Assembly (NCBI GenBank): GCA_000934665.2
Contig: JYFJ02003820.1
Location: forward strand, 1-37,194
Origin: Catajapyx aquilonaris
Lineage: Eukaryota
DNA length: 37,194 nucleotides
Direction: 5' to 3'
Shown in pieces: positions 2,165 to 35,353 of the stretch; the stretch's first letter is position 1; each line of letters opens with the position of its first letter. The notes below the pieces were generated by a model that saw only the letters and a list, made by a program, of their open reading frames with translations, ran no database searches and had not been told where the DNA came from. A program made the position numbers and the translations under genes.

Positions 2165-2770
2165 GAAGGTTTCAAGTTCTACAAGCCAATTTTGGTCACT
2201 CACAGTCATACTGTAATTATCCAGAGAGAGACACAGTAATGAACGAGATCCGATTCACTGGTTTTTGATCATCTGATTTAGTGTCAACGAGGATTTTGAC
2301 ACCTCAAAACAAACGGGCGCAAGAGTATTAATTGAATTTCGAATTTTTTACACGATGATTGACCATTTTAGTGCCTGATTGCAACCAAATTATTGATCTG
2401 ATGGTCCGGAACTGGTTCGGTTACAGCCCCTTTTTTTGGTAAACGGAGCCAGAGTAGCCTATTGCTATTTGCATGGTTGTGATGGGGTGCCAAGTGGTCT
2501 TTGTGGTGGAGGAGGGCATGCTGTTTGTCATCAATTGTCATTATTGTTGTGGTGACCTCGAAGCAGCCTTTCTTCTTCAGCTGACCTTGCAGGGGTTTCG
2601 GGTCTTCTTTGTCTCCTTCACATATAGAGAAGCGAAAAAATGAATGGATCAGTCTCCAGACAGCCGTTCAGCCATATCTCTGTCCTTGTTGTTATCGCAG
2701 TGTACCTTCAATTACATGCTGTTGTGACACTAAGCTTCTTATTATAACTCAAGCTGTTATTTACAGTTGG
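2165..2770. repeat. Diverged duplicate of ~4105-4730 (partly also 22480-22750): 3' end region of the ankyrin-kinase genes
   Basis: Shared collinear blocks such as ttttggtcactcaca, ttttagtgcctgattgcaac and cagcctttcttcttcagct. Confidence 0.8.
2577..2615 (-). other. Orphan or alternative terminal CaaX exon (ETKKTRNPCKVS*)
   Basis: AG acceptor, then GAG ACA AAG AAG ACC CGA AAC CCC TGC AAG GTC AGC TGA. Homologous to the exons at 4537-4566 and 22523-22564. Confidence 0.55.
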
Positions 2771-3494: not shown

Positions 3495-4028
3495 CTGTCG
3501 TCTCACACTTGGAACAAAATGAAACGCAAACAGAGAAGGATAATATATTATGTGCCCTTGACAAATAAATCAAGCCACCAGGAGGGCAAACACCTGCCCA
3601 TGACCACAGACTACCATCAATAATTCTGCCCATAATTTCATCCGGAATCAACCAGGCATTCAGACCAAATGGATCAAATGGCATGAAACATTTCGGACAA
3701 GATGAACAACGCTGTCAAAAATCACTCCTCCAAACATGATGATTCCAGCCAATCTAAAAGGACAGACTCGAGCAGCCCATTCGACCAAAAATTCTCCACC
3801 AGTTTTTCAGTTTCAAGCGAAGGTAAATATTATTCCAATCTGGGATGTGCAAACTGCATTCTGAACTTTGACATATTGTTTTCTACAGAGCTCTCAGGAT
3901 CATCTGAAAAGAAATCGGGCTCTGGCAAAGGTCACTCAGCCATAAGGAAGTCCAAAGTGTCAGACTCCTGCTTTTCAGACAGATCAGAAGAAAACAGCGG
4001 TGAGAAGGCAGGCCCTATATATTGCTGA
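3495..4028 (+). pseudogene. Inverted, internally deleted relic of the Ser-rich secreted protein gene
   Basis: 3495-3660 is the reverse complement of the copy-2 upstream region (~17655-17830). It is fused directly to mid-gene sequence (VKNHSSKHDDSSQS; intron 3823-3888; SGSGKG). The TATA region and signal-peptide exon are missing. Confidence 0.7.
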
Positions 4029-7500: not shown

Positions 7501-9249
7501 GGTCACGACCCCGAAGGACCCCTCACCCAAGATGGACTCCTGCTTGTAGTCCAACATGTACCTGGATGTCGTTTCCTTCGTAGCGTTCGGCTCGTTGACA
7601 TCGGCCCTGAGGAATGGATTTTAATGAGTTCGTATATCTGACGAAACGATGCTGTAATTTTTAAAAAATTAATGCACAGGGAATTAAAAATTACAATTGA
7701 AAGATACAAGACTATGCATACATTAACCAACTTATGCGCCAAGGTCTACCAGAGTGCATCGCAAAGGTAGGACCTTCCTAATATGTTGAACTGAAAGGGT
7801 TTACTGCAAGATTTTTCTTGAGTGATTCGGTGGAAGAAACGCCTGAGCCAACCGGACACAACATTTCAGCAATTAAAAATTCCTGACTTGGAGTCTCTTA
7901 CTCCCCCAATGCTGTCCTAGCAAAAGTACGTCTTGTTGGTTTCTTCATGTTATTGGCAAAAAAATGAGTGTCTGAAGCAGCTATATGTCATAAAACCTTC
8001 ATGTAATAATCTTATATGGCATCGCCAATGTTTCAAGTGCAAAACTTGAGTTATGAAGGCATGCTTATAGATCTCGATTCATATGACCAACTCAATATTA
8101 TCGTGATACACATCAAAAGAGATCCTTGATGGAAGTGTATTATAAATGAGGCATTTGCAATGGAGAAAGTTTTGCACAAATTTTCCTGTCATATGTACTA
8201 CAAGGAAATGTGCGAAGTGAACGGATTTCATGCACTTACCTGGCCTGTGGGGCATGAACTGACTTCAAGTGATCCATGATGAATCGATGCACCTGTACAT
8301 GATTTTTGAGAAGGGCCAGAGAGGCGGGTGTGGCCCCATCCTTGTCCGTGGCCTGGGGGTCACTCTTTCCCTCCACCAAAAGGATGCTGGCCACTTCCAG
8401 ATGGCCGAACATGCAGGCCAAGTGCAGTGGGGTGTGGCCAGTGTGGGTGGTTCGAGTGTCCGAGGAGCCTCCTCTGTCCAGGAGGAGTCTGCATGTCTGG
8501 ACCAGACCACTCCTGGCAGACCAGTGGAGGGCTGTCCTTCCCTCCAAGTCCCTCGCGTCCACCGCTTCCTGTCCAGTCAAGCCCAGAAGGGATCGACAGA
8601 CGCCCACCTTCCTGGCCCGACACGCCACCATCAGGGGGGTCTCCCCATGTCCGTTCCTCTTATTCTTCACCTCTTCTTCTCCCAACAACTTCCGGACGTC
8701 CTTTTCTCTTCCCATGGCTGCCATTATATGGATGGCTTCTACAATGTCCACAAGGAACTTGACCATCTCAGTTCGATCCTTGATGACTGCCACCCCTTGG
8801 GGCGTCTTCCTGTCCCCATTCTTGTCTCCAGGATCTGCCCCCCACTCCAGGAGAAGCCTCCCCACTTGGACGTTCCCGGCCTCCGCCGCCGTGTGCAGAG
8901 GGGTGTCCCCCACCTTGGTCTTGGCCATTGGGTGTGCCCCTTCCTCCAGCAGAAGGCGGCAGACCTGCAGGTGGTTGAACTCTGATGCCTCGTGCAGGGC
9001 AGTCCTGTCCTGGTGAGTGGAGGCCAGGTTGACCCTTGCCCCCCTCTTGACCAGTTCCTCGCACACTGGAATCCAACCACGTCTGGAGGCCACCATCAGT
9101 GGGATCACTCCATTCCTGCTTCTGCAGTCCACGTCCGCTCCTCTGCCCAGCAACGTCTTTACAGTGGTCAAGGAGCCATTTTCGGCCGCGTAGTGCAAGT
9201 CTGCCAGGCTCTTGTCCTCCGACCCCACGGTTGTTGCTGCTGCTGCCAT
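4537..9249 (-). CDS. Ankyrin repeat - eIF2alpha-kinase-like domain - ankyrin repeat - CaaX protein, copy 1 (exons 9249-8240, 7606-6532, 5768-5205, 4566-4537; ~892 aa)
   Basis: Phase-compatible GT-AG junctions (2,0,0) join ORFs 8236..9249 (ANK), 6523..7557 (kinase: LGEGSFG, YAVK, LFMQLELC, IHRDLKPHN, DLG, GVGTRLYGSPEQ) and 5181..5756 (ANK). The last exon KNQNFCLLS* is joined through a weaker GTGATT donor. An upstream exon is possible. Confidence 0.8.
4754..4791. mobile_element. 38-bp TIR-only derivative of the CAGGGAGCAT MITE family
   Basis: cagggagcatatacta...tagtatatgctccctg, flanked by the exact 7-bp direct repeat ctcgcac (4747-4753, 4792-4798). Confidence 0.8.
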
Positions 9250-12622: not shown

Positions 12623-14210
12623 ATGCGTGGTGTACCAGTGAGCAGAGCAATGCTGGTTGCTCTTGTGATTGTGACCCAGATGTGCACGGTGACCTCAGGG
12701 GCAGGAGGGCTACTTTCCAACCTACTGGGGAAGGAAAAAGGCCTGGGTGACCAGCTGACGGATGTGGACGTGGCCGCCTTGAACCAAGGAGAAGAGACAG
12801 GGGCAGAGGCCGACGGTGGGGAGGCGAACGTAGCGGTGGCAGTGGGCAACGAAGGAGACGAACCAGGGGCAAAGGCTGGAGGAGAAGAGGGAGGATTAGT
12901 CGATGTGGCGATAGCAGCTCTCAACCAGGAGTCCTCTGGAGGTGGAGAAATAGGCGTGGTACAGCAGGTGATCCAGACATTGACTGGTGCACTCGGAGTT
13001 GGCAGTGGAGGAACCACAGGAGGAAACCAAAAGTTAAACGGTGAGAGCACTTACATTAGTTATCACACGGGGGGGTTATACATAAGTACACTTAAAAATC
13101 GGTTGATATTTTTCAACTCATTATGTAAAAATTATAAATTCATATGTGAATCATAACTATAAAACTTAATCCTGTCTGATAGACTTACGTATAATATATT
13201 TTTACTTGACACGTAGGAGTGGATTTGGCGTGTATCTTGGACATACTGAAGGAAAAGAGATGTATTAAGAGGAGCAGCACATATCCATGGACAACGAAGA
13301 AGACAACAAGAGTCACATCGACTACCACTGAACCGACTACTGCTGCTTGCTCTGAAGAAGAGACAACGCAAAAAACAACAAACTCCAAGAGAACTACCAC
13401 TGGAAAATCTACTAGAAGACCAAGCACTACCAGGGAGCCAATGACTTCCACCAAACGTCCAGCGACAACCAGGACCACACCAAAGAAGCCAACAACTCCG
13501 ACTGTAACAACAAAGCAGCCAACGACTACGACTAAATCAACACAGAAGCCTACGACTACGACTACGACAACTATGAAGCCCATCACTACGACTAGGACAA
13601 CAAAGAAGCCCACAACAACAACTACTACCACCACAACAATGAAGCCCATCACTACGACTAGGACAACAAAGAAGCCCACAACAACTACTACCACCACAAC
13701 AATGACGCCCATCACTACGACTAGGACAACAAAGAAGCCCACAACTACTACTATCACCACAACAATGAAGCCCATCACTACGACTAGNCCATCACTACGA
13801 CTAAGACAACCACTCTAACGACCAAGAAAGCGACCACTCCCACAACCACTGTAACGACCAAGAAGCCGACAACACCCACAACCACTGTAACGACCAAGAA
13901 AGCGACCACTCCCACAACCACTGTAACGACCAAGAAGCCGACAACACCCACAACCACTGTAACGACCAAGAAAGCTACCACTCCCACAACCACTGTAACG
14001 ACCAAGAAAGCGACCCCTCCCACAACCACTGTAACCACCAAGAAGCCGACAACACCCACAACGACTCTAACCACAACGACAACAACTGCTGTGCCTAAAA
14101 CATCCCCATGCGCAGGGGAGGCGACTGAAGCAACAACTACAGCAACCACCAAAAGCAAAGGGCTTCTTGGGAATATTCTCTCGACTGCCACCAATTTTCT
14201 AGGATTTTAG
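12623..14210 (+). CDS. Secreted Thr/Lys/Pro-repeat mucin- or glue-like protein (exons 12623-13040, 13217-14210; assembly N at 13788)
   Basis: Signal peptide, Gly/Glu-rich region, phase-1 intron, then MKPITTTRTTKKPTTTTT and 36-bp TTKK(P/A)TTPTTTV tandem repeats, ending GLLGNILSTATNFLGF*. The frame changes at the N. Confidence 0.75.
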
Positions 14211-16606: not shown

Positions 16607-17451
16607 TTACCCGTTCATGAATCCACTGCCTGCCTTAACCATCTTTTTGCCAATCTTAGCAAAAGGATTGCTTTCTCCCTTATTCTTCGTGCCGCGTTCT
16701 TCGTCTGAGATGCCACCAGCAGAAAAGCTAAAACTGAATGAATCGCTTGAATCCGACTCTTTGGACTTCTTTGTGGCTGCGTAACCTTTGCCAGAGCCAG
16801 ACTTATCCTCAGATGACCCTCCTGGCAGCTCTATATGTAAGAAACAATTGAAGTGTCATTTATACAGCCCAGCTTGGAGTAATAATTTACCTTTTCTCGG
16901 AAAACTTGCTGGAAAACTGGAGTTCACATTGGAGATTTCCTGATTGAATGACCCTTCAGATTGGCTGGAATCGTCATGTTTGGAGGAGTGATTTTTGACA
17001 AAGTCGGGCATCTTGTCCGAAATGTTTCGAGCCGTTTCATTCATTTTGTCTGAAGCTTTCCTTTCTTCCGAGCTGGAGTCCATGGAATTTTCGAATTCCG
17101 TGCTGAGTGATTCTGAAGAGGAGTCTTGGGATGAGCTGCTTGGATGCTGCTCAGAAGATGACGATTCGCCAGACGAGGCTTGGGGTCTGTCGGTTGTCGA
17201 GGTCTGGACACACCCTTGGAGGCGACATGGTATTGCTGTGGAGCCAACAGATGTTGACTGGGAAGATGGTGTCTATCCTTCACTTGTCTGCTGAATCACT
17301 GGCCCTGCAGCAGTGAGAAAAGTGGCGGATTGTATCACTTTTCCTAATAATCAAGAGAGGACATCAGATCCAAAAACCGTTTTCAAAAATGCTTACCCTG
17401 AGCGAATCCAGCAGTGACGAGTCCAGCCAAGATGAAGAAGAGAGGCGACAT
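16607..17451 (-). CDS. Secreted Ser/Asp/Lys-rich protein, copy 2 (exons 17451-17397, 17304 or 17235-16891, 16830-16607); possibly pseudogenised
   Basis: Signal exon MSPLFFILAGLVTAGFAQ, 60-nt intron 16831-16890, ends GKKMVKAGSGFMNG*, AATAAA ~35 nt downstream. There is an in-frame TAG at ~17273-17275 if the acceptor homologous to copy 1 is used. Confidence 0.65.
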
Positions 17452-19821
17452 GGTTGGTTTAGTCCGGATCTACTCGTCTGATCTGATTCAGTGGCAGGCC
17501 GAGTGTGAATCTATCCATGGGAGGACCCCTCTTTATATCTCCAAAACTGGAGACGTCACTTGCGAGCAGAAAAATAGCTACATTTTATTCGCATGACGGA
17601 TTGTGGCAGATATGTCTGGCTGTGTTGACGAATGACTGTTGAGCTAGGTGAGAACAATGCCTGGGTTGTCTACGGGTGAAATTATGCCCATTATTGATGG
17701 TATAGACTCGCTAGTCTGTGGTCATGGACAAGTGTTTGCCCTTCTGACGGCTTGATTTATTTTTGTCAAGGGCACAGTGACGTATGTCCTTCTCTATTTG
17801 CGTTTCATTCTGTGTAAAGAGTGGAGACGAACTTTTCCACCGAGCGTATCTTGCTAGTGGCCAGCATATACTCTAGTTATGCATTACCGCAATTAGGATA
17901 ATTATGCTGCAGTCACATCCTGGATCCTAGTTCACCCGCTGGATGATTGGTCCGGACTCTTAGGATATACTTGTTTATTTTGGACTTGTCTATTATTTGT
18001 TTGAAATTAATTATTGCAATTTCTCATTTGGATACCGGTATTTGCTCTACTATTATTATTTTGATTGCTCTAACATGGGCTGCTTTTTGAGCAGTTTTGT
18101 GCCAAACTAAAATGGACATCTCTATATAGGAAAGGTGTATTATTTATTACGCACAATATGCAAACTTTTAATGGTAATGTCAGATAAACATGCAACATAT
18201 CTATTATTTTTGTCCCGTAACAGCTGCTAAAATGCTCAGTACGTATAGCTGTACAGTGTGCAGTGCATTTCATTCACCCCTCGTGATTCAAGGTCAGCAG
18301 ACGTATTCCACCTGTGTAAGTGCATGAACAACAAACATACAAGGCAAAAAAAAAAAGCTTGCGGAAAACTATCAAGAAAATATATCTCGACCGATATAGC
18401 TTTATAAAGGTTATGTCAGATAAACCTAAGAAAGAATAGTAGACTCTAGGAAGAAACCGGTTTTAATTATGCCAACTGTCTATATTTTACACAATGTTAA
18501 TGAGCCGACAGGCCGAGTAATAAAGGTGTTTGGGAGACGTATCAAGTGCGTATGAGTTTATTGAATGTATAACATGACTAATTTCTATTTCAAGGACAAC
18601 GCAGTTTTTTTCTGCAAGGTAAGCAAGCTGCATTCAGTCCTTTTTTTCCCCAAAGTTATCAACCTGATTTTTCCCCCTTCCTTCTCCGTCGAGTCAGGGC
18701 TGATCTAATTAACCCCCCGCTGGAATTAAAATATTAGTACAAAAAACCACATGTATTACTCATTTCATGTAGGCCAACTTGTACATTGTAGCAAAACACA
18801 GACTTGTCGTAACAAAATGACATCTGTTCGCATCGACATGCTTTGGACCAATGTTATTAGTAGTCGGAGATTGTTTATTTTTTTTTGCCGCTGATGAAAA
18901 CGCATCACAATAATTACGCACAATTACTGATCTAGTGCACTGGTCGACTTCAAGGCCAACTGACTTGTCAGTTAGGTCAGTTATTCTAGATCCAAGGATA
19001 TCTTGTTTATTATTTGTGGACAAGTGCGCAAAATGCTCTGCATGTAATTAGGGGGATATAATTATGTAGACAAATGATTGTCTCAAACACATGCACCTAT
19101 TGGCATGCAACTTAATTTTTATTCCTCAAAATAATATTGTATATTTTTTCTAATCATTTTTAGACAAACTAGGAAGAAGAGAGAGTAATGCGCACAGGGC
19201 AGTGACACAACCAGTATAAGAAACAATGTAGTTAAATTGAAAATAGCGTCCTGTGATAAATAATTAATAGTTGCGCCATCCTGATACTATATAGGAAATT
19301 GTACCGAAAAATACCGGTAAATGTTATTGCAAGGAAGATGCCCAGAAAAAATAGCCGAAAAATGCATGCATTTGCACCAATAAGGCCACCGTTTTTTTGT
19401 GTAAAGTTATTTTACCCTGTGCAGGCTACTCAACTTGCCAGACGACTTAATTACCATATTTTTCACATCAACTGAATTACGCTTCAGTTGTAATAATGAA
19501 TGGAATACTGATACATAGACTGGACTTGCAAGGCAGGAAATCTAACCAAGGCAAAAATAAGCTTGGCCAAAAAATTCACCAATGAGGACTGGTGCTTGTT
19601 GCAATATTAACGATTGTTACATTTACAATAGCAAACAATATATTATTAAAGTGTGCACCCACATAATATTTGATTCTACGCGTACATAATTTATTAATCA
19701 TGATTGCAGAAGGAGATCGAGAGTGTATTAATTTTTACAACAAACATTACATTAAATATTATCGAGATTATTTCTAGCCATGTACACATTCACTTTGCAC
19801 AAAATTAAGCGCCACTGCTCA

Positions 19822-20270: not shown

Positions 20271-22086
20271 ATGAAGGTCGCACTCTTCGCAGCCCTGCTC
20301 TGTCTCCTGCCCATCTTCACACAGGGGCAACAGACCAACTTCACTCTTGGTAATACTCGTTTTAATATCAATTATTATAGCATTTAAAACAGAACTGCTG
20401 GATTGCAGATGATGCATTCGCCAAATGCAGAAACGCAAAGAAGCATGATGTGGGTACGTGCATCGTGAATCTGATCAACGAGGACTTGCAGCCTCTCATT
20501 GCTCAAGGTACAGTGGACGGGCATTGTTGGGGGTGGACTGCCATAACTGATGGACCATTCTTGCCGGTTCAGATTGGGAGAGGATTTGTTGTATCTTTAA
20601 AAGTGCAAAGGAGGTGACTTACTACATTCAGATTGATGTGAAAGGAGTGGGTGTGAAGAGGAATATCCTCAACAATGGTTTGACAATAATAATCGAGTGT
20701 CTTTTTTCGGAGCGCAGGGATACCCGAGCTGGGATTGGACGGAGAGAGGCTAGATAACTATAACTTCACTTTTGACGATGCCCAAGCAAGCAACTTCCTC
20801 AAGGCTGGCTACACTAACGGATACTTCAGGGGATTCAACTTGGACTTCAGGCTGCAGCATCTCAAGTGAGATCCTATCTATCTTATTCCACGTTTGGTGT
20901 TAGTTTGCAATATATTCGGGCATAAAAATTAGCGATAAAATATATTAATCACAGTGCATTGTAAGCATCTCACATCACACGAATGCTGCCTCGTGTTTGC
21001 ATTATTTAAAACCAGTTTTCCGACTGGTTCCTCTCCACAGGATAGATTACGACAAGAAGCTGGCAGCCTGGTCAGCATTTGCGCCTAGCTTCACCTTCTA
21101 CGCCAACTGCTTCGTAAACGCCTCCTTACTGTTGGTCAACCTGCAAGGAGAGGGACCATGCTGGTGGAACATCCGTAAGTGATTGATCAGAAAATAATAA
21201 TAATCACCTTGGGTGGAATTGGGCAGTATATAGTCGTGGGACGAAAATTCGACCCCCTGACAGGGAGCATATACGTACTATACATAAGAGGCGCAACCTT
21301 CGGTCAGCGCCATTGATTTCCGCGTCTCTCTATTTGGGGTCGTTGCCAAGGCTGGCGGCCATTTTGAAGTGGGGGCAACGCCAACGAGGTATAAGTAGGG
21401 TACAGGCAAAAATAGGGCCCGCCATCTTTGATGGTTTTGGCGGCCATGGCAACTACACGGCAAGAACAGGCGCGAATCAAAGATGGCGGACCCTATTTTT
21501 GCCTGTATCTATTTATACCTCGTTGTGGCTTTGCCCCCACTTCAAAATGGCCGCCTGCCTTGGCAACGGCCCAAAGCAGAGAGACGCGGAATTCGAATGT
21601 TTCTGCCTCTTATGTAGTATATGCTGCTCCCTGCCCCTGACACCATTTTTAATGGCGATATTATTATTTTTCCAGATAACGCGACCTACACTGGGATCAC
21701 CAAACTGGCTGTGGAGGAAATAGACGGTGACCTCCGTCTTCAGGAAGAATCGACTGACTTCGGTTTCAACATTAAAAACCCAACCTTCAGGATGAAGAAC
21801 CTCTTCCAAGGAAACGAACTTGTCGGTAAGGTCAATATTATTAAAGTCTCATTCTGATGACAAATTGGCAACTTTCATACATCTCTTCTCTCGTATTGTT
21901 GCAGAGGGGGTGGCCTGGCTTTTCCTCGACGAGAATATTGACGCTATGCTTGCTCTGATGAGAGACGATACCAGGAGATTCTTCCGAGAACTCACAGGGA
22001 ACATTGTCAACAGGGTTCTGGCCAAGATCCCCATCAAGAAACTGGCCGGATACCAGTACTTGAAGGAGGCCTTCAACATACACTAA
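20271..22086 (+). CDS. Takeout / haemolymph juvenile hormone-binding protein (JHBP) family protein (exons 20271-20349, 20409-20507, 20718-20865, 21041-21174, 21676-21825, 21905-22086)
   Basis: Signal peptide MKVALFAALLCLLPIFTQG, N-terminal Cys pair, GIPELGL motif, LLLVNLQGEG, MKNLFQGNELV, FLDEN...NRVLAKIP. All junctions are phase-compatible. Confidence 0.85.
21261..21633. mobile_element. Palindromic MITE in JHBP intron 4
   Basis: CAGGGAGCA...TGCTCCCTG termini, long imperfect inverted arms, 7-bp direct repeat cccctga on both sides. Second full copy at 28045-28420. Confidence 0.9.
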
Positions 22087-22522
22087 TTGCTTTGTGTGGC
22101 TGTCTCGTGACTAAATTGAAATTTCATTTAACAGAGACGGGAGAAAGAGGCGACCTTGATGACCAAATTATTTGTGCATTTTTCGCCAACTTTTTGTGAG
22201 CGTCTGCCATGTAAACAATCACTTTTGCTTTACTTTTCAGCGCTATTTTTCGCGACAGTAATATTTTCCTTGCAAGTGTGCCTAGACGTGCTCCAATTTG
22301 CAATCCCGCCTTTACATTAGTATAGATGTTACTTTTTTGCAAAGAGATTGGCAACGTGCAAAATTACTGCATACGTGTTTTGTTACTGTTGATATGCAGT
22401 CAAACATGTGGAGACAATAGACCGAAGCTAGATCCGGATCAGGCTTGTATCTTTTTGTTGCGGAGGAAGTCACGAGGTTGATCATCAGTGGTCATTGTTG
22501 TGGTGGAACAAATCTTCCTCCT

Positions 22523-25500
22523 TCAGCTGAGTGTGCAGGGGTTTCGGGACCTCTTCTTTGTCTCCTTCAAAGCAAATACAGTAAATAGAAAAGGGGACAA
22601 CAAATATTAACAAACCATTCTCTCCAAACATGTCTGTTCAGCCAACAATCGCAAACCATGTTCCTTCAATAATCAATCCCGTTATTTTGACACAATGCTG
22701 GTTATATAAAGCTGCTTCTTTAAAACGTTATCAAGCTGCTTTACTTATACAGAAAGTGTGTTAGGCAACTGTCAATGCCTCCCTATAAATAAATACCTTC
22801 AGAAGCTCTACGACATGAACGTGTCCTCTTTCCTCTGCCAGATCAAGAGATGTCCTCCCGTATTTGTCCCTGGCCGACTTGTCAGCTCCCTTGGACAGAA
22901 GGAAGCAAACCAGTTCTGGTCGGTTGTACCATGCTCCATAGTGAAGCGGGGTCCCGTTCCCTATTCCCTTGTCCTCCAGTCCTGCCCCTTCCCTCAGGAG
23001 TAAGTCCACAATCTGGACATGGTCTTCTCGAGATGCGAGGTGGATTGATTGGTTCCCAAATCTATCCTTTTCCATAACATCTGCCCCTTCTCCGATCAGC
23101 ATCTGGCAGGTGGGCAGATGTCCTCTTCGTGCTGCCAGATGAAGAGGTGTTCTGTCCCAACCATCTCTCTGATTAACAGGCCATCCTCGTCCGACGAGAA
23201 AGGCAATCACCTCGTCTCTTCCTTCCATTGCAGCCAGGTGGAGTCCACTCCGTCCCAAATCATCCCTCACCCTCATCCACCCTTCAACTCCATCCTGAAC
23301 CATCATCTTCACCTCCTCCAGACTACCACCTTCGCATGCCTCCAGGAACGTTGCCTTTTTCTGGGAACCAACATTTGCTTTGCCATCTGCTCTGGAATGA
23401 TTATTATCAGAGATCCTTCCAGATTCCTTCCCGCCCTCCAGGTTCCTTTCCAGAAGTTGGGAGGTCGAATGGTGTCCCATAATAGTCGCCCACTCATGAG
23501 GTGCTTTTCCATTCTTGTCCTTCTTCCCTGGATCCGCTCCGTTTTCCAGGAGGAGGAGGACTGTTGACTTATGACCACTCCTTGCAGCAAGATGCAGAGG
23601 TGTCATATCGTAACGATACGCTGAGTCCACCTCCACACCTCTGTCCAGGAGGAAGTGGATGACATGGGAGTGACCATACGAAGCAGCCAGATGGACGCCG
23701 CTTCTTCCGTACATCTGATCCACTGCCCCAACCACGTCCACTCCCATTACGTCTACCCACTTCTCAACTTCGGACAGGACACCCTCTCTGCAGGCTTCAA
23801 AGTATCTCCCGAAGTCCAACTAAGGGGGAAAGGAAGAACACCATCTGTGAATTTTCAGACACCAATTATGCTCACCTTTCCCATCCTGTCCAGGGACATC
23901 TGGACTTGTTTCTCCACGTAAGAAGACGAAACTCTTGATGACGGATCGGGTGTCAGCATCTTCTGAATCAGCCCTGCTTCCTCTACATTCTTGCTCGTAA
24001 AGTCATTTGGAAATGCGTTTCCACTCCTGAGGGAAAGGAAGGTCCGTGTCCTTCCTTCCTTGTCCCCTCCAAATGGGAACAACAGCTCAAACAGGACAAG
24101 GCCCATGGAATAAACGTCTGTCTTGGGCCCGTACTCTCTCCCGCTCATCTGCTCAGGGGAGCAGTAGAGTCTGGTTCCAACACCCGCTGTCATGTCCGGT
24201 ATTGAAGGAAGAGGATTAGGGGAGATGACCTCTGGTTCAGATGGGTCACCATGACCTGGATGGTGGGAAGGAGAGGCCAGAAGGGAGGTGGACAGACCGA
24301 AGTCTGCAATCTTCACACCCTTTCCATCCAGGGCAAACAGGATGTTGTGTGGTTTCAGGTCTCGGTGGATCAGGCTCTTGGAATGGAGATAACAGACTGC
24401 AGATGCTATTTGTCCGAAGAGGGTGAGTTTTGCGAACTTGCACAGATTCAATCCTCCTCCGTCCATCCTGTGTCCTAGTGTCTCCTTCTTACAAAGTTCG
24501 AGCTGCATGAAGAGGAAATCCGTGGTTGGGCCTGTCACCGTCATGGGAGCTGAGAAATAGGCGGATGCTGCCTCTGAGGCCTCTTTTGCCTCTGGACCAG
24601 GCCTGTTGGAGCATGTGGCCGTCATGGCGTCCCACTCCTTGTGGACCCAACAAGGTGTCCTCTCCGTCCAGGCGTGGTAGAACTTCACAACGTGATCGTG
24701 GTCCAGTCGAGCCAGAGTCTGCACTTCCCTCAGAATGACCTCCTTCAGGTGCAGGTCTTGAGGCAGAGGAACCCTCTTCACAGCGTAACGTGCCTTCGCC
24801 AGCTTCAGTTCAGCCTCGGCCACGACTCCAAAGGACCCCGCACCCAAGATGGACACCTGGTTGTAGTCCCACATGTATCTGGACACGACTGTCGTTTCCT
24901 TCGCACTGTTCTGATCGTTGACTTCGACCCTGAGTAATGGAATAATTAATGAGTTGTTACAGTATAATCTGTGAAGTGGCCACCATAATGTTATTTCATG
25001 CACTCACCTGGCTTGCATGTGATAGGTCCACTTCAAATGATCCATGACGAATCTGTGTACTTGGACATGACCCTTGAGAAGGGCCAGAGAGGTGGGTGTG
25101 GCCCCATCCTTGTCCTTGGCCTGGGGGTCACTCTTTCCCTCCAACAAGAGGAGGCTGGCCACATCCAGATGGCCGAACATGCAGGCCAAGTGCAGTGGGG
25201 TGTGGCCAGTGTGGGTGGTTCGGGTGTCCGCGAAGGCCCCTCTGTCCAGGAGGAGTCTGCACGTCTGGAGCAGATCACTCCTGGCAGACCAGTGGAGGGC
25301 AGTCCTTCCCTCCAAGTCCCTCTCGTCCACCTCTTCCTGGCCAGTCCAGTCCAGAATGGTGCGACAGACGCCAACCTTCCTGGCCCGACACGCCACCATC
25401 AGGGGAGTCTCCCCATGTCCATTCCTCTTGTTCACCTCTTCTTCTCCCAACAACTTCCGGACGTCCTCTTCCCCTCCCATGGCTGCCATTATATGGATGT

Positions 25501-25999
25501 CTTTTGGAATATTCACGAGGAACTTGACCATCTCAGTTCGATCCTTGATGACTGCCACCCCTTGAGGCGTCTTCCTGTCCCCATTCTTGTCTCCAGGATC
25601 TGCCCCCCACTCCAGGAGAAGCCTCCCCACTTGGACGTTCCCGGCCTCCGCCGCCGTGTGCAGAGGGGTGTCCCCCACCTTGGTCTTGGCCATTGGGTGT
25701 GCCCCTTCCTCCAGCAGAAGGCGGCAGACCTGCAGGTGGTTGAACTCTGATGCCTCGTGCAGGGCAGTCCTGTCCTGGTGAGTGGAGGCCAGGTTGACCC
25801 TTGCCCCCCTCTTGACCAGTTCCTCGCACACTGGAATCCAACCACGTCTGGAGGCCACCATCAGTGGGGTCACTCCGTTCCTGCTTCTGCAGTCCACGTC
25901 AGCTCCTTTGTCCAGCAATATCTTGACCAGTGTCAGAGACCCATTTTCTGCAGCGTTGTGTAGGTCTGTCAGGCTCTTGTCTTCTGTTGCTGCTGCCAT
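22523..25999 (-). CDS. Ankyrin repeat - eIF2alpha-kinase-like domain - ankyrin repeat - CaaX protein, copy 2 (exons 25999-25008, 24929-23876, 23819-22797, 22564-22523; ~1036 aa)
   Basis: 78-nt and 56-nt GT-AG introns join the ANK, kinase (LGAGSFG, YAVK, HRDLKPHN, DFG, GVGTRLYCSPEQ) and ANK ORFs in frame. A phase-0 intron 22565-22796 leads to ETKKRSRNPCTLS*. Confidence 0.85.
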
Positions 26000-27610
26000 G
26001 ATTATTCCCTAGTGAAGGCAACATATCCGACTCTTTATGGGCGGCAATTTGCAGTATTGTTGGGCTTCGAAAATATTACTACAGGTGCTATAATGAGAGT
26101 TAGATGTTCGTAAATGTAATTGCTTAAAATAAGCAGGTAGGGTGCCGGAAAATAGCTAACCAACTAGTCGTACATAATGTACATTTCAACCGCGAGTAAA
26201 TGCATCGCACTCCGACATGATGTGTTGGGCACGCATTGTGACATAAGTTGTATTAATACTCACGTTTTAAATGTGAATAATCGGATGGGAAGAATACTGT
26301 TCAGTCTGCTCGAAACCAGGTACATAAGACTTTCTAACACTTCCAGGTAGAAATAAATGCACATAACTCTACGCCACTTCCATATGCTATATCAACAGCA
26401 TTTTATATCGTTACCTTTTTGAGAACCACAAATCGGTACAGGAAATGGCCTTAGCGGAAGGTTGCGGTAGAAGTTTCTCCTGAAGTTAAGCTATGACCTT
26501 GAGTGGTACAAAAAGTAAATAAATAATGCTTACAATGCACAACGCCAGATGTGATGTGCAGACTCAATGTGTTTTGTCCTGATGATTTGTTACTACAGAT
26601 ACAAGCAGCCTGGATGTCAGTTATGTACATTGGACATTTTTGGAACAAAACAAGAATACTCCAATTAACATCTGACATTTTATTCTTCAGTTGTTCTTAC
26701 AACACAATGATGACAATTATTTTAAAGCCGTCTATTGTTTGCGCACTTATGGATCGCGATTTTTTTCCGTTTACATCACGGCATAATCAAGATAAAATGG
26801 TAAAATAAAATTCTTGATCGCAACAATAATATTCAATCACAGGAACTGACAATGCGGAATAATTGAAACTATCGGAGGAAAATTTAGAAAAATTATTTGG
26901 CGTACGCGTCACGGCAACATGATTCGCATTATTACTGCTGATAGATTTTGGTCCTTTCATCAGGAGCACAAAAAATACTCCGCCAAAAAAACCATAAGTA
27001 TACCTCTGAAGAAATAGGCTTTAAAAGTCCCGAAATTGCTTCAAAAAGTTCAAAAACTATCCCAAGAAAGGCTATAAATAGGCATGAAAAGTCGCAAAAG
27101 CCAGAATATAGGCAAATATAGTTATCAAAATCGCGAAATAGGCCAATTTAGACACCGCATTTTCCACATCCTTCATTGTGGCATAAGCAGAAACACATCA
27201 CCTTGCAATTAATACGTCATTTTCATAACTACAACGTCTAAATGTCATTATGTATCTTTAGAGATATACAGTATTTGAGCCTGTGAGTGAGAGTATAAAT
27301 ATAGTCGTATTTGTCTTATACATTCGCATTTATATCTTACTTGCCCCTCTGGGTTTAACAATAAAGTACACAAAAATGCTGCTTACAATGCATTGATGAA
27401 ATAAATGCTGTTACCGTAGTGTTAATTTTAAGAATTGTAGCCCTGCACATTCTCATGCAGGCCTTTCATTTAAATGTTTTCATGAAATAACATGTAATAA
27501 GAGAGATTACTTTTTTTTGTTTCTGTCCTAAAAATCCAAAATTCTTCTCATTATAATATAATTAGAAAGCAATGAGGACAATTAAGTGTCGTGTGTGTAA
27601 GGCACGATAG

Positions 27611-27656: not shown

Positions 27657-28044
27657 TTTTATGTTATATTCATTTTACATTTGACTAGACGGTATATCTT
27701 TATTTTATTTACATTTTTTGGCATTTTTATTTAAGTACGTAGCCTATTCATTATATTATTTTATGTACTACAGCTTATTATTGTATATGTACAGTACATT
27801 TTATTCCTCGGCATACTGTACGTTTTATTCTGTGTACATTTTATTTTATGTAGGCTACATGTTATTTTGCGGACATTTTATATTTTATATGCATTTTAAT
27901 TTTTTGATCTTATATTCTACGCACATTTGATATTTTATTTACATTTTTTTGTATATGCCTACTTATCAAAAGCATTTTGCATAATTATATGCACGAAATG
28001 TACCACATTCTAACCGCTTCTAACCGCCATTTTCATAACTGCAA

Positions 28045-28420
28045 CAGGGAGCATAATTATCCCTATTAATATAATACTACATAAGAGGCGCAAACTTCTG
28101 TCGGCGCCTTTGATGTTCGCGTCTCTCTGTTTGGGGCCGTTGCCAAGGCTGGCGGCCATTTTGAAGTGTGGGGAACGCCAACGAGGTATAAATAGGGTAC
28201 AGGCAAAAATAGGGTCCGCCATCTTTGATGCGGTTTTGGCGGCCATGGCAACTACACGGCAAGAACACGCGCGAATCAAAGATGGCGGACCCCTATTTTT
28301 GCCTGTACTCTATACCTCGTTGGCGTTGCCCACACTTCAAAATGGCCGCCAGCCGTGGCAGCGCCCGAAACAGAGAGACGCGGAAATCGAATGTTTGCGC
28401 CTCTTATGTTATGCTCCCTG
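28045..28420. mobile_element. Palindromic MITE, second full-length copy
   Basis: Same TIRs and internal sequence as 21261-21633. Left flank actgcaa, right flank acg+actgcaa. Confidence 0.9.
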
Positions 28421-29024
28421 ACGACTGCAACGTCTAAATGTCATTACGTGGCAACGTATTTTAACGGATATTTTTGAATCCGTAAAATCAGCCTATAAAT
28501 AGTCATATTTAGCCTTATATTATTGCTTTTTATCATTCATGCCCCTGCTCTCAGCGCCTCTAGTGTCGACGTCCCACATCGCAACAGACTTTTCAAGACG
28601 TTCGATGCAATAAAAAGAAGTGTGCCTTAATCAAACATGGCCGCTTAGTGACTCGAAAATCTTCGCATCTCCAGTCGTATTTTGGTGATTTCCGGCTCTT
28701 TCGTGCATCTCTGAGGCTTCAGGTGAGTCTGCGCCGATTCCTAGGATGCTGAAGGATATTAAACACGCTGTTCTCAATAGGTTGGTAGGCGGATAGCAGC
28801 ATAGGAGGCGGAAGAAGACGGGGCTTGTTTGGTGGTTCTAGGCTGGGCTTGGTTGTTGGCCCTCAAAACTGGTTCGTACACGTCTGTGAAGAGCTTCAGG
28901 TTGTGCACAGGATGTACTGGTAGACGCTGGCACAACGTACTGACAGGAGGACACTACACGGCAAGTTCTCAATACGCTGCACTGTACGCATAATAGTTAC
29001 ATAATATTTTTCCTTTCAAAGATC

Positions 29025-30488
29025 ATGCCACGGAAAAAGCAGCCGCAGACTCTCCGCCAGATCAGCCTCAGTGCACTGGCCAGCACCGTACTTGAAGCAT
29101 GTACCAGCGACGAACACGACCAGATCAGCCAGTACGTCCGTGACATACCGAAGATGTTTGCAAATGAGTACGTCAACGAGCTGCTGCGGTTGTGCACATT
29201 GCGGACTGATCACTTCAGCATCACCTGCGCTTTCCATCCCGAGTGCACGGAGATAAACAAAAGCCGTATAACGTCATCGCGGCATTGGTATCACCAGTTG
29301 TTGGTCGGTCTTCACGTAATGAGCGAACTGACTGTTCTGAAACCGAATGTCGAAGCATTAAAATTCAAGTGCGATGTTATGCAAGAACTTCCCTTTCCGC
29401 GTCTCAGTAAACTGCGATCGCTTAAACTGGCGCTCAGATCGTACCCGGAGCTCTTACTGCAAGTGGTTGAAAACTGTCCGCGGTTGGAAGAAATACGAGT
29501 CGTTACACGCATGCAGTTTGAGTGGACGCCTCTAGCGCAATGTGTGCATCTGAAAAGAATTTTTGTACGTCCAATACATCCGTTTGATGCCGTGTACTTG
29601 CTGGATCAGCTTCCAAGCCTTGAAATTTTGGAAGTCGATGACATGGCGAAAGTACTGCCACTGTGCGAACATGCATATCCGTTAAAGAGTTTCGTTCGAT
29701 GCCTGAGAGTAAGCAAGTCAGCTTCGGTGCAAAAGCTTGTAAGTCATTTTCCGCATCTACAAGAACTAGACTTGGAGCTATCCGGCGACATTAATCTAAG
29801 CCCGATTAACGAACTGGCTAACCTCAAAGGCTTAACAGTACGACATGGTAATTGCGCGAACCTCGCTTGCCTGATGGACCCCTGCGTACGCCGTCTTTCA
29901 AAATTAGCGTTAACCTATGTTTTTCACATTGATTCACTGTTTAACGAAGACGTCGTGCCGACTCCGCTCGAGACCCTAGGTATTTTGGGATGTACCGGAA
30001 TTAATTTGGCGGCTATAGGCAAGATATTTCCTAAGCTAAAGTCGTTTAATGCACGGGGCGATGAATTCATTGCGCTTCCCCCGTATCAAATGCTTGGTTT
30101 TCATGAAGTTGAGAGCTTGTTCGTAACTAGCAAGCTGCCGAGATGTCATTTGAAAAGCCTGTTGTCGTCCATCAGGAAGCTTAAGTACTTGGACATACTA
30201 AACATATCCGGTGACATGTTCGTCAGCCAATATCTGGCCGAATCGAGACTGAAGTACTTGTGCGAACTGTGCCTACATGACGACAACATGACGAAGGATG
30301 TGATTCCGATTATTCTGGAATCAACCGGCGATGACTTACATAAAGTGCTGTTGTTCGGCAACAACATGGTGTTGTCCCGTAGCGAAATGGATGCGTTATC
30401 CAGCCTCTTGCAGGTTTACGACATACATTTTTTCGTCAGCTGCGGAGAAATGCAGTTCATGCACGATTCACGTCTGGGATTTTACTGA
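29025..30488 (+). CDS. Intronless leucine-rich-repeat protein (487 aa) with a BC-box-like N-terminus; putative Cullin-RING substrate receptor
   Basis: Long ORF with repeated LxxLxL units (LSKLRSLKL, CPRLEEIRV, LPSLEILEV, FPHLQELDL, LANLKGLTV). N-terminal PQTLRQISLSAL. Confidence 0.75.
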   Translation: MPRKKQPQTLRQISLSALASTVLEACTSDEHDQISQYVRDIPKMFANEYVNELLRLCTLRTDHFSITCAFHPECTEINKSRITSSRHWYHQLLVGLHVMSELTVLKPNVEALKFKCDVMQELPFPRLSKLRSLKLALRSYPELLLQVVENCPRLEEIRVVTRMQFEWTPLAQCVHLKRIFVRPIHPFDAVYLLDQLPSLEILEVDDMAKVLPLCEHAYPLKSFVRCLRVSKSASVQKLVSHFPHLQELDLELSGDINLSPINELANLKGLTVRHGNCANLACLMDPCVRRLSKLALTYVFHIDSLFNEDVVPTPLETLGILGCTGINLAAIGKIFPKLKSFNARGDEFIALPPYQMLGFHEVESLFVTSKLPRCHLKSLLSSIRKLKYLDILNISGDMFVSQYLAESRLKYLCELCLHDDNMTKDVIPIILESTGDDLHKVLLFGNNMVLSRSEMDALSSLLQVYDIHFFVSCGEMQFMHDSRLGFY

Positions 30489-32108: not shown

Positions 32109-35100
32109 ATGGACCAAGAACCTGCTGATGTGGTAACGGTCGTCATTTGGAGCACCCAAAAAAAATATGAAGCTCTATTTTATTGTGTTTTACATGATAA
32201 TTATTGTAGGATAAAGATCAGCAACTTGCGGAAAATTTGAAGCGGAATAAATACATGTCAAAATGTCTGATCCATGAACTGCTCGTTCTAATCAGATTTT
32301 TTTGGTGAAATTGGTGCTGGATTGGGGGTTATTAAAAATTTAAATTCATTCCAAAACAGAGCTTAACTTATTGATAAATTATTTCTCTTATTATAATAGT
32401 ATTATTATTTTGGTAAGATACTATAAAAATTGAAAGCTGTACAACAGTGCTGATCTGAGAGAGAAATGTTGGAATGTAATGAATTTGCAATTATTTGGTT
32501 CCCAACTTTCAAGCAATACACTAAGAACCTGTAGTTATTTATTTTAATATTATTATGGTTTTGGTAAAATTTTGGTACGTACCGTAAGTTACTAAAAATT
32601 GAAAGCTATAATATATAGCAAAACGGTGCTGAACTGGGAGGTAAATGTCTGAAAATCATGAATTTTGCCAATTTGTTTTCCTAACTCACTTAATGGCGCT
32701 AAGAGCCTGTAGTTATCCGTTATTTATCCCAATTATGATTTTGGTAAGTTACTAAAAAGTTTAAAGCTATAACACATAGCAAAACAGAGCTGATCTGAGA
32801 GAGAGAGAGAGAGAGATGTTGGAATGTCATGAATTTGCAATATTTTTTCTAACGTTGACGAAATGTGTTAAGTACATGTAGTTATTTATCTGCTTCACCG
32901 GCCAGGGTCGGGGGGTAAAACTCAAGCTCCGTAAAACTGGCATTTACGGAGGGATTGGAAAGTACGGAGGGTGGAACTCCGCGATTTTCTGTTTTACGGC
33001 GGCTCCCCCCGTAAATTCGTGCTTTTACCGGGGTAAAAATTTCTACCGCGACTGGTGCACCCGGCCCTCATTATGGTTTTGGTAAATTAACATCCATAAA
33101 CATGGCAATGCCCATGCTAAACAAGTCGCGGACGCCATCACATAACGTATGGTGCGACATTACTTTTGCGGTTAATAGTACAATGATTAAAAAATTGCAA
33201 ATGTGGATTTTTTCACCATATTTTTTTAAAAATGTCAACAAATTTAATTCCTGCCCATTCCCATTTTCTCCAGTTGAAATATTGAAAATTTACACCAACA
33301 AATTGCAGATGCAACCAAATGAGCTTTGTGTTTCTAATAATTGTTATCTGCAATGTCTGCTAAACAATTATTGTACATTGCAACAAACTCGATCCTGTAG
33401 CAGATCCTTATCGTGTGACAAGGGGAAATCGTTGACCGGATCTTTTGCACTTTTCAGATCGATGATCCAACTTGGATTGCCAACAAGGAGGTACAGGCTG
33501 GTGAAATCCTGGCCTTGGAAAGCACGTGTGACCAAGACGAGATCAAGGTGCAGCGGGACTCATTTAGAGTCTGGTTTGTCGGTGATATCCATGCGAAACC
33601 CCAGCTGGACGGTGCTACGATTGAGTTGAAGTGGAGGAAAACCAGAGCGAGAGGTACTTTATTCCGTCATTTACGGATTACATCACGTGCTTTTTAGACA
33701 ATCTGGATTTGCTGTGTTTGGTGCTCCCTGCTATAAGTCGTAAATGCCTCATTAACTAACCGATGTAACTTCCAGGTGAATATGAAGCGGCGAACATCTC
33801 CCACCTGCCTGCGATAACGCTCCACTTCCTGCTGCCTTGCACTTACCCTTCGCACAGCCCACCAGAGTTTCAACTGCGGTGTTGCTGGCTCAGCGAGGTC
33901 CAGGTGAGTATATAAAGAGTCCTGCCATGCGTTCATCCTGAAACTTGCTCTCTAATTTCTCCACGACTAGCTCTCCAAACTGTGCAGACGCATGGATGAG
34001 ATCTGGGCTGAGGATGAGGGTTGCGAAGTCCTGTACAAATGGATGGCATTCTTACGCGAGAAGAGCCTTGAATTCCTCGGGTGCAAGAGTGTCCTGAACC
34101 TGACCGCAATTGTGTTCAGACAATGGCAGAAGAAGTCACATCCTCAGCCGAAACGGACCCAGAAGAAGTCAAATCCACAGTCAAAAAGGACGCAGAATAA
34201 GTCGAAGAAACGTGCTGATCCGAATGTTGATGATCTTGCGAAGATAATCTTCATGCCCCGTCCTCGCAACACTGAACCTGAAGGAGTGCCTTATCTGGAC
34301 AGACGCACCAAGGTGATCCTTCCTCCGTCCGTCGCTGTAGTGGAAAAGCCCTCTCTGTTGCCATACTACCTGATCCACTTCTCCCAGCAAGAAATGCAAT
34401 CCCAGTACGACGCTGCTTTCCAAACGTGCAAAATTTGCATGGACACGAAAAGAGGACGCGAATTCACTGGCATACTGGGATGCGGACATGTTTTTTGCAC
34501 CGAGTGCGTCAGGGAGTACTTAACTGCTCAAATTAGAAGCGGATGTGGACGGGACCTGCTGTGTATGGAGGTAGCCTGCGACTGTGCGGTATCAATTACA
34601 CAGGTACTGTGCGCTTGAACCGCCACAATTTTGTATTCCTAATTTATGGCTATCCAACAGATAAAGGCCTTGGTTGATCCCGAGGTGTTCCAGATGTACG
34701 ACCAGGCTCTTCTGGAGTCATCGCTGGCCTCGATGAGCGATGTGGTCAAGTGTCCGCGGCCGTCTTGCCAGTGCGATACCATCATGGACTCTGACAACAT
34801 GGCTGTATGCAGCAAATGCGGGTTCGCATTTTGTGTGGAGTGCCGTGCAGCCTACCATGGTGTCCAGCCCTGTGCGATGTCAACTCATGAACTACGTAAG
34901 CTGGCCAAGAAGTACGAATCGGCTAGCCCCGATCTGAAGCGAGAGATGGAACGCGAGTACGGACGCAGGCATCTAACCACACTGCTGAGCCAATACCTGT
35001 CGGACGTATGGATGCAGGACAATGCCAAGACCTGCCCCAAGTGCAGGGTCTTCATCGAGAAGTCAGACGGATGCAACATGATGACATGTCACAAGTGTGC

Positions 35101-35353
35101 CGAGCCTTTCTGCTGGTTGTGCGGAATGAGCCTGGACAAGACCAATCCGTACAGTCACTTCTGGCGGAACGATTCCAGCTGCTTTGAAAAGCTGATGCAA
35201 GGCATGGACGTGGGTGGCGATGAAGTGGATCCGGAGCTGGCAGCGGCTCAAGCTGAAGAATGGATGGATGCAGAAGATGAGGAAGTGGATGAAGTGGTAT
35301 GGATGCTGGAGAACCAGATCGGGGCGCTTATCACACTGGAGCGTGAAGGTTAA
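32109..35353 (+). CDS. RNF14: RNF14/ARA54-like RBR E3 ubiquitin ligase, RWD-RING1-IBR-RING2 (exons 32109-32132, 33458-33653, 33776-33903, 33971-34603, 34661-35353; ~557 aa)
   Basis: RWD motifs NKEVQAGEILALES and HLPAITLHFLLPCTYPSHSPPEF; RING1 CKIC...CGHVFCTEC; IBR CPRPSC...CSKC..FCVEC...HGVQPC; RING2 CPKC..IEKSDGCNMMTC..C..FCWLC, NPYSHF. The first micro-exon is less certain. Confidence 0.88.
32395..32890 (+). repeat. Diverged tandem repeat, ~3 units of 150-185 bp, in RNF14 intron 1
   Basis: Recurring ttttggtaag..actaaaaattgaaagcta..gtgctgatctgagag..atgttggaatg..atgaattt..cctgtagttat. Confidence 0.75.

Follow-up and report, generated by a model that had tools for sequence, protein, structure and literature searches.

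A tandem gene pair in Catajapyx aquilonaris that appears to join a PERK-like kinase domain to flanking ankyrin arrays

Introduction

The four canonical eIF2-alpha kinases have one catalytic module in common and each couples it to a sensor of its own, while new sensor-kinase pairings such as PKZ show that the integrated stress response has been rewired. Whether a further pairing is encoded by Catajapyx aquilonaris is the question raised by a 37,194-nucleotide (nt) stretch of its DNA (GenBank assembly GCA_000934665.2, contig JYFJ02003820.1, positions 1 to 37,194, forward strand; hereafter the window), in which two minus-strand genes, gene B (25999-22523) and gene A (9249-4537), place a kinase domain next to ankyrin repeats. 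An earlier note on this DNA, written from the sequence alone, had taken gene B for an ankyrin-flanked kinase of the eIF2-alpha kinase (PEK) family and for a candidate translation shut-off system. We hold with moderate confidence that the pair is a real, tandemly duplicated animal gene for a cytosolic, PERK-like kinase of this family, in which ankyrin arrays replace the luminal sensor and transmembrane segment of PERK, a CaaX-like tail would serve as membrane anchor and activation would be driven by dimerisation.

Structure of the gene pair

Three minus-strand open reading frames (ORFs) lie head to tail at 25004-26008 (334 aa), 23855-25003 (382 aa) and 22761-23819 (352 aa), and their Pfam assignments, in this order Ank_2 (2.4e-57), Pkinase (6.9e-43) and Ank_2 (1.3e-63), are far beyond chance. 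The kinase is thus flanked by ankyrin arrays on both sides, as had been noticed, and joining the frames at GT..AG introns gave 3111 nt, or 1036 codons plus a stop, in agreement with the single protein of about 1036 aa that had been put forward. We infer from splice signals and comparison with the paralogous gene A that splicing of four exons into one gene B mRNA is the best reading of the locus, with the following parts.

25008-25999, minus strand: gene B exon 1, N-terminal ankyrin array with about 10 repeats (protein residues 1-330; Pfam Ank_2 2.4e-57, Ank 1.3e-54)
24930-25007, minus strand: gene B intron 1, 78 nt, GT..AG, phase 2, holding the in-frame TGA that divides ORFs 1 and 2
23876-24929, minus strand: gene B exon 2, complete PERK-like catalytic domain of the eIF2-alpha kinase family, protein residues 332-682 (Pfam Pkinase 6.9e-43)
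23820-23875, minus strand: gene B intron 2, 56 nt, GT..AG, phase 0
22797-23819, minus strand: gene B exon 3, C-terminal ankyrin region with a 4-repeat block, a low-complexity linker and a 6-repeat block (Pfam Ank_2 1.3e-63)
22565-22796, minus strand: gene B intron 3, 232 nt, GT..AG, phase 0
22523-22564, minus strand: gene B exon 4, 42 nt, 13-residue basic tail ending in the CaaX-like CTLS, with TGA at 22525-22523

The start codon of exon 1 (ATG, 25999-25997) has an in-frame stop four codons upstream, and the exon closes with two bases of codon 331. The modelled donors read CAG/GTGAGT (25008/25007), AAG/GTGAGC (23876/23875) and AAG/GTATTT (22797/22796) for introns 1 to 3, and the corresponding acceptors lie at 24930/24929, 23820/23819 and 22565/22564.

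The second copy, gene A (9249-4537, minus strand; 884 aa), is laid out alike and is identical to gene B at 655 of 867 aligned residues (75.5%).

8240-9249, minus strand: gene A exon 1, N-terminal ankyrin array by Pfam, 91.7% nucleotide identity to gene B exon 1
6532-7606, minus strand: gene A exon 2, kinase domain with DLG replacing DFG (Pfam Pkinase 4.3e-44)
5229-5768, minus strand: gene A exon 3, single C-terminal ankyrin block by Pfam, equivalent to the second block of gene B
4537-4566, minus strand: candidate terminal exon of gene A, short tail with the CaaX-like CLLS before the stop

Gene A introns measure 633, 763 and 662 nt against 78, 56 and 232 nt in gene B, a 3- to 14-fold difference in length, and the conserved blocks returned by blastn between the window halves correspond to the exons only (8225-9219, 91.7% identity; 6550-7630, 77.8%; 5238-5745, 71.3%). 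Shared intron positions and phases had been claimed for the two copies; intron 1 agrees in full (AG/G in both) and introns 2 and 3 are of phase 0 in both, but the positions of the latter two differ. Gene A exon 2 extends four codons beyond that of gene B, and gene A exon 3 lacks both the first C-terminal ankyrin block (about 157 aa) and the last repeat, with no remnant of that block detected by tblastn in gene A intron 2. The ratio of nonsynonymous to synonymous divergence (Ka/Ks) between the copies was 0.39 overall, 0.32 in the N-terminal ankyrin array, 0.35 in the kinase and 0.40 in the C-terminal ankyrin region. With regional values of 0.32-0.40, both copies are therefore under purifying selection, though not of a strong kind.

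Synonymous divergence (Ks) is uneven between the two genes: it is lower in the N-terminal ankyrin exon (0.19) and the kinase N-lobe (0.10) than in the C-lobe (0.89) and the C-terminal ankyrin region (0.70). This unevenness suggests gene conversion in the 5' half of the two genes (25999-24650 in gene B compared with 9249-7350 in gene A), where the N-lobe, with few changes, gave a Ka/Ks of 1.14. The duplication is segmental: a Ser-rich gene of no Pfam family lies downstream of each kinase gene (1268-1988 and 16949-17776, 71-72% nucleotide identity), and the unit of gene A also carries an inverted partial copy of the Ser-rich gene at 3498-3967.

Family membership of the kinase domain

All database searches and structure predictions were run exon by exon rather than on the joined 1036-aa sequence; in gene B the whole kinase domain lies within exon 2. 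Each of the family hallmarks that had been listed for this domain is present as written, namely SRY..DY, YAVKRV, LREV..LA.L.H..VV.F.HAW.E, an insert before LFMQLELC, and T.GVGT.LY.SPEQ, and its assignment to the PERK/HRI/PKR/GCN2 family is borne out by sequence ranking, by fold and by family-specific residues. When the domain was searched against all PDB chains with phmmer, the 19 best distinct sequences were all EIF2AK1-4 (PERK 4.8e-56, GCN2 2.7e-42, PKR 9.1e-37, HRI 5.3e-32), followed, after a gap of ten orders of magnitude, by SIK3 (7.4e-22). An exhaustive HMMER search of 1.84 billion representative proteins returned 591 matches at E <= 1e-30, and among the best 150 of these, which were inspected, identity to the kinase exon reached at most 45%. 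Mispredicted multi-kinase proteins that also carry dsRBD or Z-alpha domains have the highest total scores in this search, and the best match per kinase domain among the matches listed is a true PERK with a luminal domain (P0017; 209 bits, 45% identity). An HRI label considered for one group among the matches was dropped, as its member P0129 best matches PERK; HRI is thus represented by the PDB ranking only.

The AlphaFold2 model of the exon-2 product (46-row alignment) had a mean predicted local distance difference test (pLDDT) score of 87.1 and a predicted template modelling score of 0.84, and Foldseek placed PERK at ranks 1-13 (best E = 8.4e-21), then PKR and GCN2. Among the family matches, 71 alignment positions show conservation of at least 80%, and at 57 of these gene B carries the majority residue. 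Both copies keep the catalytic residues (in exon-2 numbering, K51, E68, H188-R189-D190, N195 and D209), and both keep the N-lobe pair R17 and D21 before the G-loop, the former position being Arg in 148 of 165 family matches; we take this pair to be equivalent to R262 and D266 of PKR, residues of the back-to-back dimer. Activation-loop T247 and T252 are likewise kept in both copies (Thr in 154/168 and 163/174 family matches, respectively) and presumably correspond to T446 and T451 of PKR.

Between beta4 and beta5 the domain holds an insert of about 45 residues (exon-2 positions ~90-137) that is without counterpart in the matches and is conserved between the paralogues. Its central part (24650-24520; exon-2 93-126) is predicted to form a helical hairpin of two helices at a pLDDT of ~87, a value that may be overstated because only the two window sequences cover the insert in the alignment. 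The beta4-beta5 insert of PERK is long and disordered. The Pfam scan of the gene B ORFs found no dsRBD, Z-alpha, RWD or HisRS-like domain.

Phylogenetic placement

For phylogenetic inference, kinase domains were cut by profile columns and, out of 190 chains, those filling fewer than 220 columns were discarded, which gave, with two insert regions removed, an alignment of 161 rows (159 matched domains and the two window domains). Probes for the PERK luminal domain, RWD/HisRS and dsRBD served to label the domains. The trees include no outgroup sequences and are unrooted, and family membership rests on the rankings and signature residues given above.

In a quick tree under LG+G4 (115 rows, including 24 of the 70 domains labelled PERK), the window kinases occupied a long branch on the PERK side, adjoining unlabelled kinases that represent an expansion in Pristionchus (Shimodaira-Hasegawa-like approximate likelihood ratio test, SH-aLRT, 83). 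Under the LG+C20 mixture model (62 rows), the Pristionchus expansion instead joined nematode PERKs (SH-aLRT 95, quick tree), and the window clade became sister to PKR, GCN2 and others (support 85/81) on a stem of 0.96 substitutions per column. Since the mixture model sends the Pristionchus kinases to nematode PERKs and the window clade elsewhere, we rejected their sister grouping, which dissolves under this model, as probable long-branch attraction. The window kinases fall outside both the PKR-like clade (SH-aLRT 95) and the GCN2 clade (SH-aLRT 98; quick tree), and holding them with the PERK side was not rejected by the approximately unbiased test (log-likelihood difference 1.97, p = 0.146). 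The kinase therefore forms a long orphan branch of the family, most PERK-like in pairwise comparison, whose placement shifts with the model. Of what the earlier note had expected from a phylogeny against EIF2AK1-4, membership in the family stands on the rankings and signatures, but the stem is long and the window kinases nest in no canonical subfamily.

A missing threonine before helix alphaG

Exon-2 position 288 is Thr in 141 of 163 family matches (68/70 of the PERK-labelled, 22/22 of the GCN2-labelled and 13/19 of the PKR-like domains); in its place gene B carries Gly and gene A Glu. By alignment it corresponds to Thr487 of PKR, lying seven residues after an invariant Glu in both the PERK and the human PKR alignments, and it just precedes the modelled alphaG helix (residues 290-301). 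A deep mutational scan of PKR reports Thr487 among a few highly constrained sites, and describes it as stabilising helix alphaG and inducing the change in eIF2-alpha that phosphorylation requires (PMC11556786). With this threonine lost in both copies, eIF2-alpha is not a safe assumption as substrate, and the proposal of a translation shut-off through eIF2-alpha is weakened accordingly.

Other residues of the region are kept: E281 is invariant, position 291 is Glu or Asp, and R293 is retained. Further non-conservative changes in gene B are Ala at position 44, where 147 of 174 family matches have Asp, and Val for Pro at position 333. The orphan PEK domains of Pristionchus also lack the alphaG threonine, which was found in none of the six examined; most of these six read DLG instead of DFG. 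This expansion of PERK-derived kinases (P0139, P0070, P0090, P0049, P0147 and relatives) is large, and many of its members have tandem kinase domains.

Ankyrin arrays

The N-terminal array of gene B comprises about 10 repeats with a TPLH-type motif spaced 33-34 residues apart, and its two C-terminal blocks of 4 and 6 repeats are 41% identical to one another, an internal duplication detected by tblastn. According to Pfam, exon 1 is ankyrin from residue 1, and neither the luminal sensor of PERK nor a transmembrane segment was found there. The best solved matches of both arrays are ankyrin-1/2, NOMPC and designed DARPins, that is, generic consensus repeats, and the 60 best solved matches for each array do not include RNase L. 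Ligand sensing in the manner of the RNase L ankyrins, which had been suggested for the arrays, thus found no backing; because they look generic and RNase L lies outside the best 60, a ligand-sensing role is purely inferred.

To place the architecture among known kinases we assembled 160 relatives, of which 10 came from a word-indexed search for longer proteins related to the kinase exon and 150 were the best of the 591 HMMER matches. Both ankyrin exons were searched against all 160 with phmmer and gave no match at E <= 1e-3, in keeping with the earlier statement that none of the canonical animal members uses ankyrin arrays. Pfam detected no Ank family in the 35 relatives scanned, nor any ankyrin in the 10 distant proteins from the word search, while a PERK luminal probe, run against the relatives rather than the window proteins, matched 73 of the 160. 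A full-text literature search likewise found no ankyrin-bearing eIF2-alpha kinase, and the word 'ankyrin' is absent from the main text of a 2024 phylogenomic survey of EIF2AK (PMC11305385). The ankyrin-kinase-ankyrin architecture therefore appears to be undescribed, as had been supposed, and would bring known modules together in a new way within an established kinase family.

The C-terminal tail

A feature that had escaped the earlier note is the CaaX-like C-terminus. The last mini-exon occurs in three copies in the window, which end in CTLS (gene B), CLLS (gene A) and CKVS, each directly before the stop codon; the third was found by blastn (2500-2620 against 22454-22569, 75% identity) and may be an alternative last exon of gene A.

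2577-2615, minus strand: third terminal mini-exon copy and its 3' flank, encoding 12 residues with CKVS before the stop (translation and three-way alignment)

In the three-way alignment the acceptor, the frame, the Cys codon (-4), the Ser codon (-1) and the stop are invariant, and the surrounding residues vary. A CaaX box with Ser at the X position directs farnesylation, and the motif suggests a farnesyl anchor on the cytosolic face of a membrane. Such a lipid anchor would restore by other means the membrane tether that PERK has through its transmembrane helix.

Discussion

We propose that farnesylation of the CaaX cysteine would place the protein on the cytosolic face of a membrane, where the ankyrin arrays may bind a protein partner or ligand and this binding would control clustering. 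The kinase domains would then pair back-to-back through their N-lobes, leading to trans-autophosphorylation of the activation-loop threonines as in PERK and PKR, and the activated kinase would go on to phosphorylate its substrate. eIF2-alpha is probably the single most likely substrate, at slightly less than an even chance, and, as the alphaG threonine is lost, its docking could not follow the canonical mode. The dimerisation step is consistent with a predicted homodimer of two copies of the kinase exon, which scored 0.55 (best of three controls, 0.00), with an interface in the N-lobe (residues 17, 21, 41-46, 66-74 and 83-88), agreement between runs in at least 88% of contacts and a partner pLDDT of at least 76. 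The mark applied to such predictions was reached by 20 of 30 proteins solved as one-chain pairs and by 1 of 23 single chains (17 of 29 and 0 of 30, respectively, for eukaryotes). Because structures of PKR, PERK and GCN2 and their back-to-back dimers have been solved, the predictor may have reproduced them, and the result shows likeness only.

Several points weigh against this model of a membrane-anchored, ankyrin-controlled PERK-like kinase. The exon joins are models drawn from splice signals and the comparison of the paralogues, and the Ka/Ks of 0.3-0.4 denotes moderate constraint only. Gene A reads DLG for DFG, both copies have replaced the alphaG threonine (Gly and Glu), and the pair sits on its long stem (0.96) without nesting in PERK, GCN2 or PKR. 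The arrays bear no specific likeness to any known sensor, and the third copy of the tail has Lys at the first 'a' position of the CaaX-like motif. Finally, no orthologue was found: identity reached at most 45%, and scans of metagenome and viral contigs gave 51 and 26 pattern matches, respectively, none of which was confirmed.

Some of these points would fit a different outcome, possible but in our view doubtful, in which the gene pair encodes a neo-functionalised PEK-derived kinase that is active and membrane-associated but has left eIF2-alpha for another lineage-specific substrate or a role as signalling scaffold, and which would then be comparable to other fast-evolving orphan offshoots of PERK. 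The loss of the alphaG threonine in both copies, paralleled in all six Pristionchus domains, speaks for this, as do the long stem branch, the Ala in place of the family Asp at position 44 and the confidently predicted helical hairpin in the insert. Set against it are the other alphaG-region residues, which are kept (E281, Glu or Asp at 291, and R293), and the fact that the solved relatives ranked above the E-value gap are all eIF2-alpha kinases; moreover, 6 of the 19 PKR-like domains, from fish, are also without the threonine, so that it is not absolute across the family. In the opposite direction, the pair could be read as an undescribed class of animal eIF2-alpha kinase, a PERK module freed from the ER lumen, placed between two cytosolic ankyrin arrays and re-anchored by a farnesyl group as a lineage-specific shut-off of translation in stress or innate immunity, triggered when the arrays bind a ligand of the host or of a pathogen. 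We regard this fuller reading as unlikely on present evidence, and the same goes for its corollaries, that the kinase would be to PERK what RNase L is to IRE1 and that tandem duplication with gene conversion would mark an ongoing diversification.

It is improbable that the fusion is an artefact of the gene model or the relic of a decaying locus, with the ankyrin and kinase ORFs being separate or unexpressed and no 1036-aa protein being made. Mispredicted fusions are common in this family, several of the top matches being multi-kinase concatenations, and no annotated orthologue of this architecture occurs among the 160 relatives examined. Yet the kinase ORF of gene B opens right after a stop and has its first Met within the conserved SRY..D motif, neither C-terminal ORF begins with Met, and canonical splice sites restore one frame in both paralogues despite the 3- to 14-fold differences in intron length. 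All ORFs are intact in both copies at a Ka/Ks of 0.32-0.40, and conservation stops at the exon borders. A foreign source for the locus, be it an ankyrin-rich symbiont, a giant virus or a contaminant, is barely credible. Some endosymbionts and giant viruses typically have proteomes rich in ankyrin proteins, and the coding regions have a G+C content of 0.51-0.59 compared with 0.29-0.44 in the flanks, but both copies are interrupted by GT-AG introns of the spliceosomal type that have polypyrimidine tracts, animal PERKs are the best relatives, the neighbouring genes are animal-like (e.g. an RNF14-like gene), and the 26 viral and 51 metagenome pattern matches yielded no confirmed relative.

Among known systems the PERK-like kinase proposed here comes closest to PERK (EIF2AK3), its best match in both sequence (4.8e-56) and structure (Foldseek ranks 1-13). 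The two share SRY..D before the G-loop, a beta4-beta5 insert, T.GVGT.LY.SPEQ and a back-to-back N-lobe dimer, which is predicted for the window kinase, and both seem to be membrane-tethered with a cytosolic kinase, which for the window kinase is suggested by the CaaX motif. Unlike PERK, the protein has no luminal or transmembrane segment, carries ankyrin arrays on both sides and would be held by a C-terminal lipid rather than an N-terminal transmembrane helix; it has also lost the alphaG threonine, its insert is short and predicted to be helical, its kinase lies in one exon, and it does not nest among PERKs. PKR/PKZ and GCN2 (EIF2AK2 and EIF2AK4) belong to the same kinase family and fold and likewise join one catalytic module to a lineage-specific sensor, whereas the window kinases lack dsRBD, Z-alpha, RWD and HisRS-like domains and fall outside both clades. 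The Pristionchus PEK-like expansion is a further lineage-specific, fast-evolving offshoot of PERK, with the alphaG threonine in 0 of 6 domains, and is without ankyrin repeats, unlike the gene pair described here.

Ankyrin repeats and a protein kinase also occur together in ILK, TNNI3K, ANKK1/RIPK4 and DAPK1, the kinase domains of which belong to other groups; none of these families is present among the 60 best PDB matches of the kinase exon. RNase L, which is homologous to IRE1, offers a parallel in design, in that the output module of a sensor of endoplasmic reticulum (ER) stress sits on a cytosolic ankyrin array instead of a luminal domain. The two differ in that a PERK-like active kinase is found here and an IRE1-like pseudokinase with an RNase there, and in that the window protein has arrays on both sides and a CaaX tail, with no specific similarity of the arrays to those of RNase L and a ligand role that is conjectural. 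A published account of RNase L has its ankyrin domain holding the 2-5A site, with 2-5A binding driving dimerisation (PMC11672174).

If eIF2-alpha is still phosphorylated by these kinases, the pair would represent a new input to translational control. It would also be the second case, the first being RNase L and IRE1, in which an output module of ER stress has become a cytosolic, ankyrin-gated device. If it is not the substrate, the pair and the Pristionchus expansion would jointly show repeated loss of the alphaG threonine in offshoots of PERK, a pattern that would suggest substrate switching in the family.

Other features of the window

No Rfam match was obtained in the whole window. An RNF14-like RBR E3 ligase gene with RING and IBR domains is encoded at 33971-35353 on the plus strand, and its product best matches an RNF14-like protein of a sponge (47%), with insects and nematodes at 38-46%. 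The plus strand also carries an uninterrupted 514-aa ORF of no Pfam family (28944-30488) and, at 13477-14071, a coding tandem-repeat array (periods 30, 36 and 63 nt) that is mucin-like and rich in Thr, Lys and Pro, in which an N at ~13788 is an assembly gap character. Two plus-strand ORFs, at 21187-21723 and 28014-28421, have a long similar peptide stretch in common, which suggests a dispersed repeat or mobile element flanking the gene B region.

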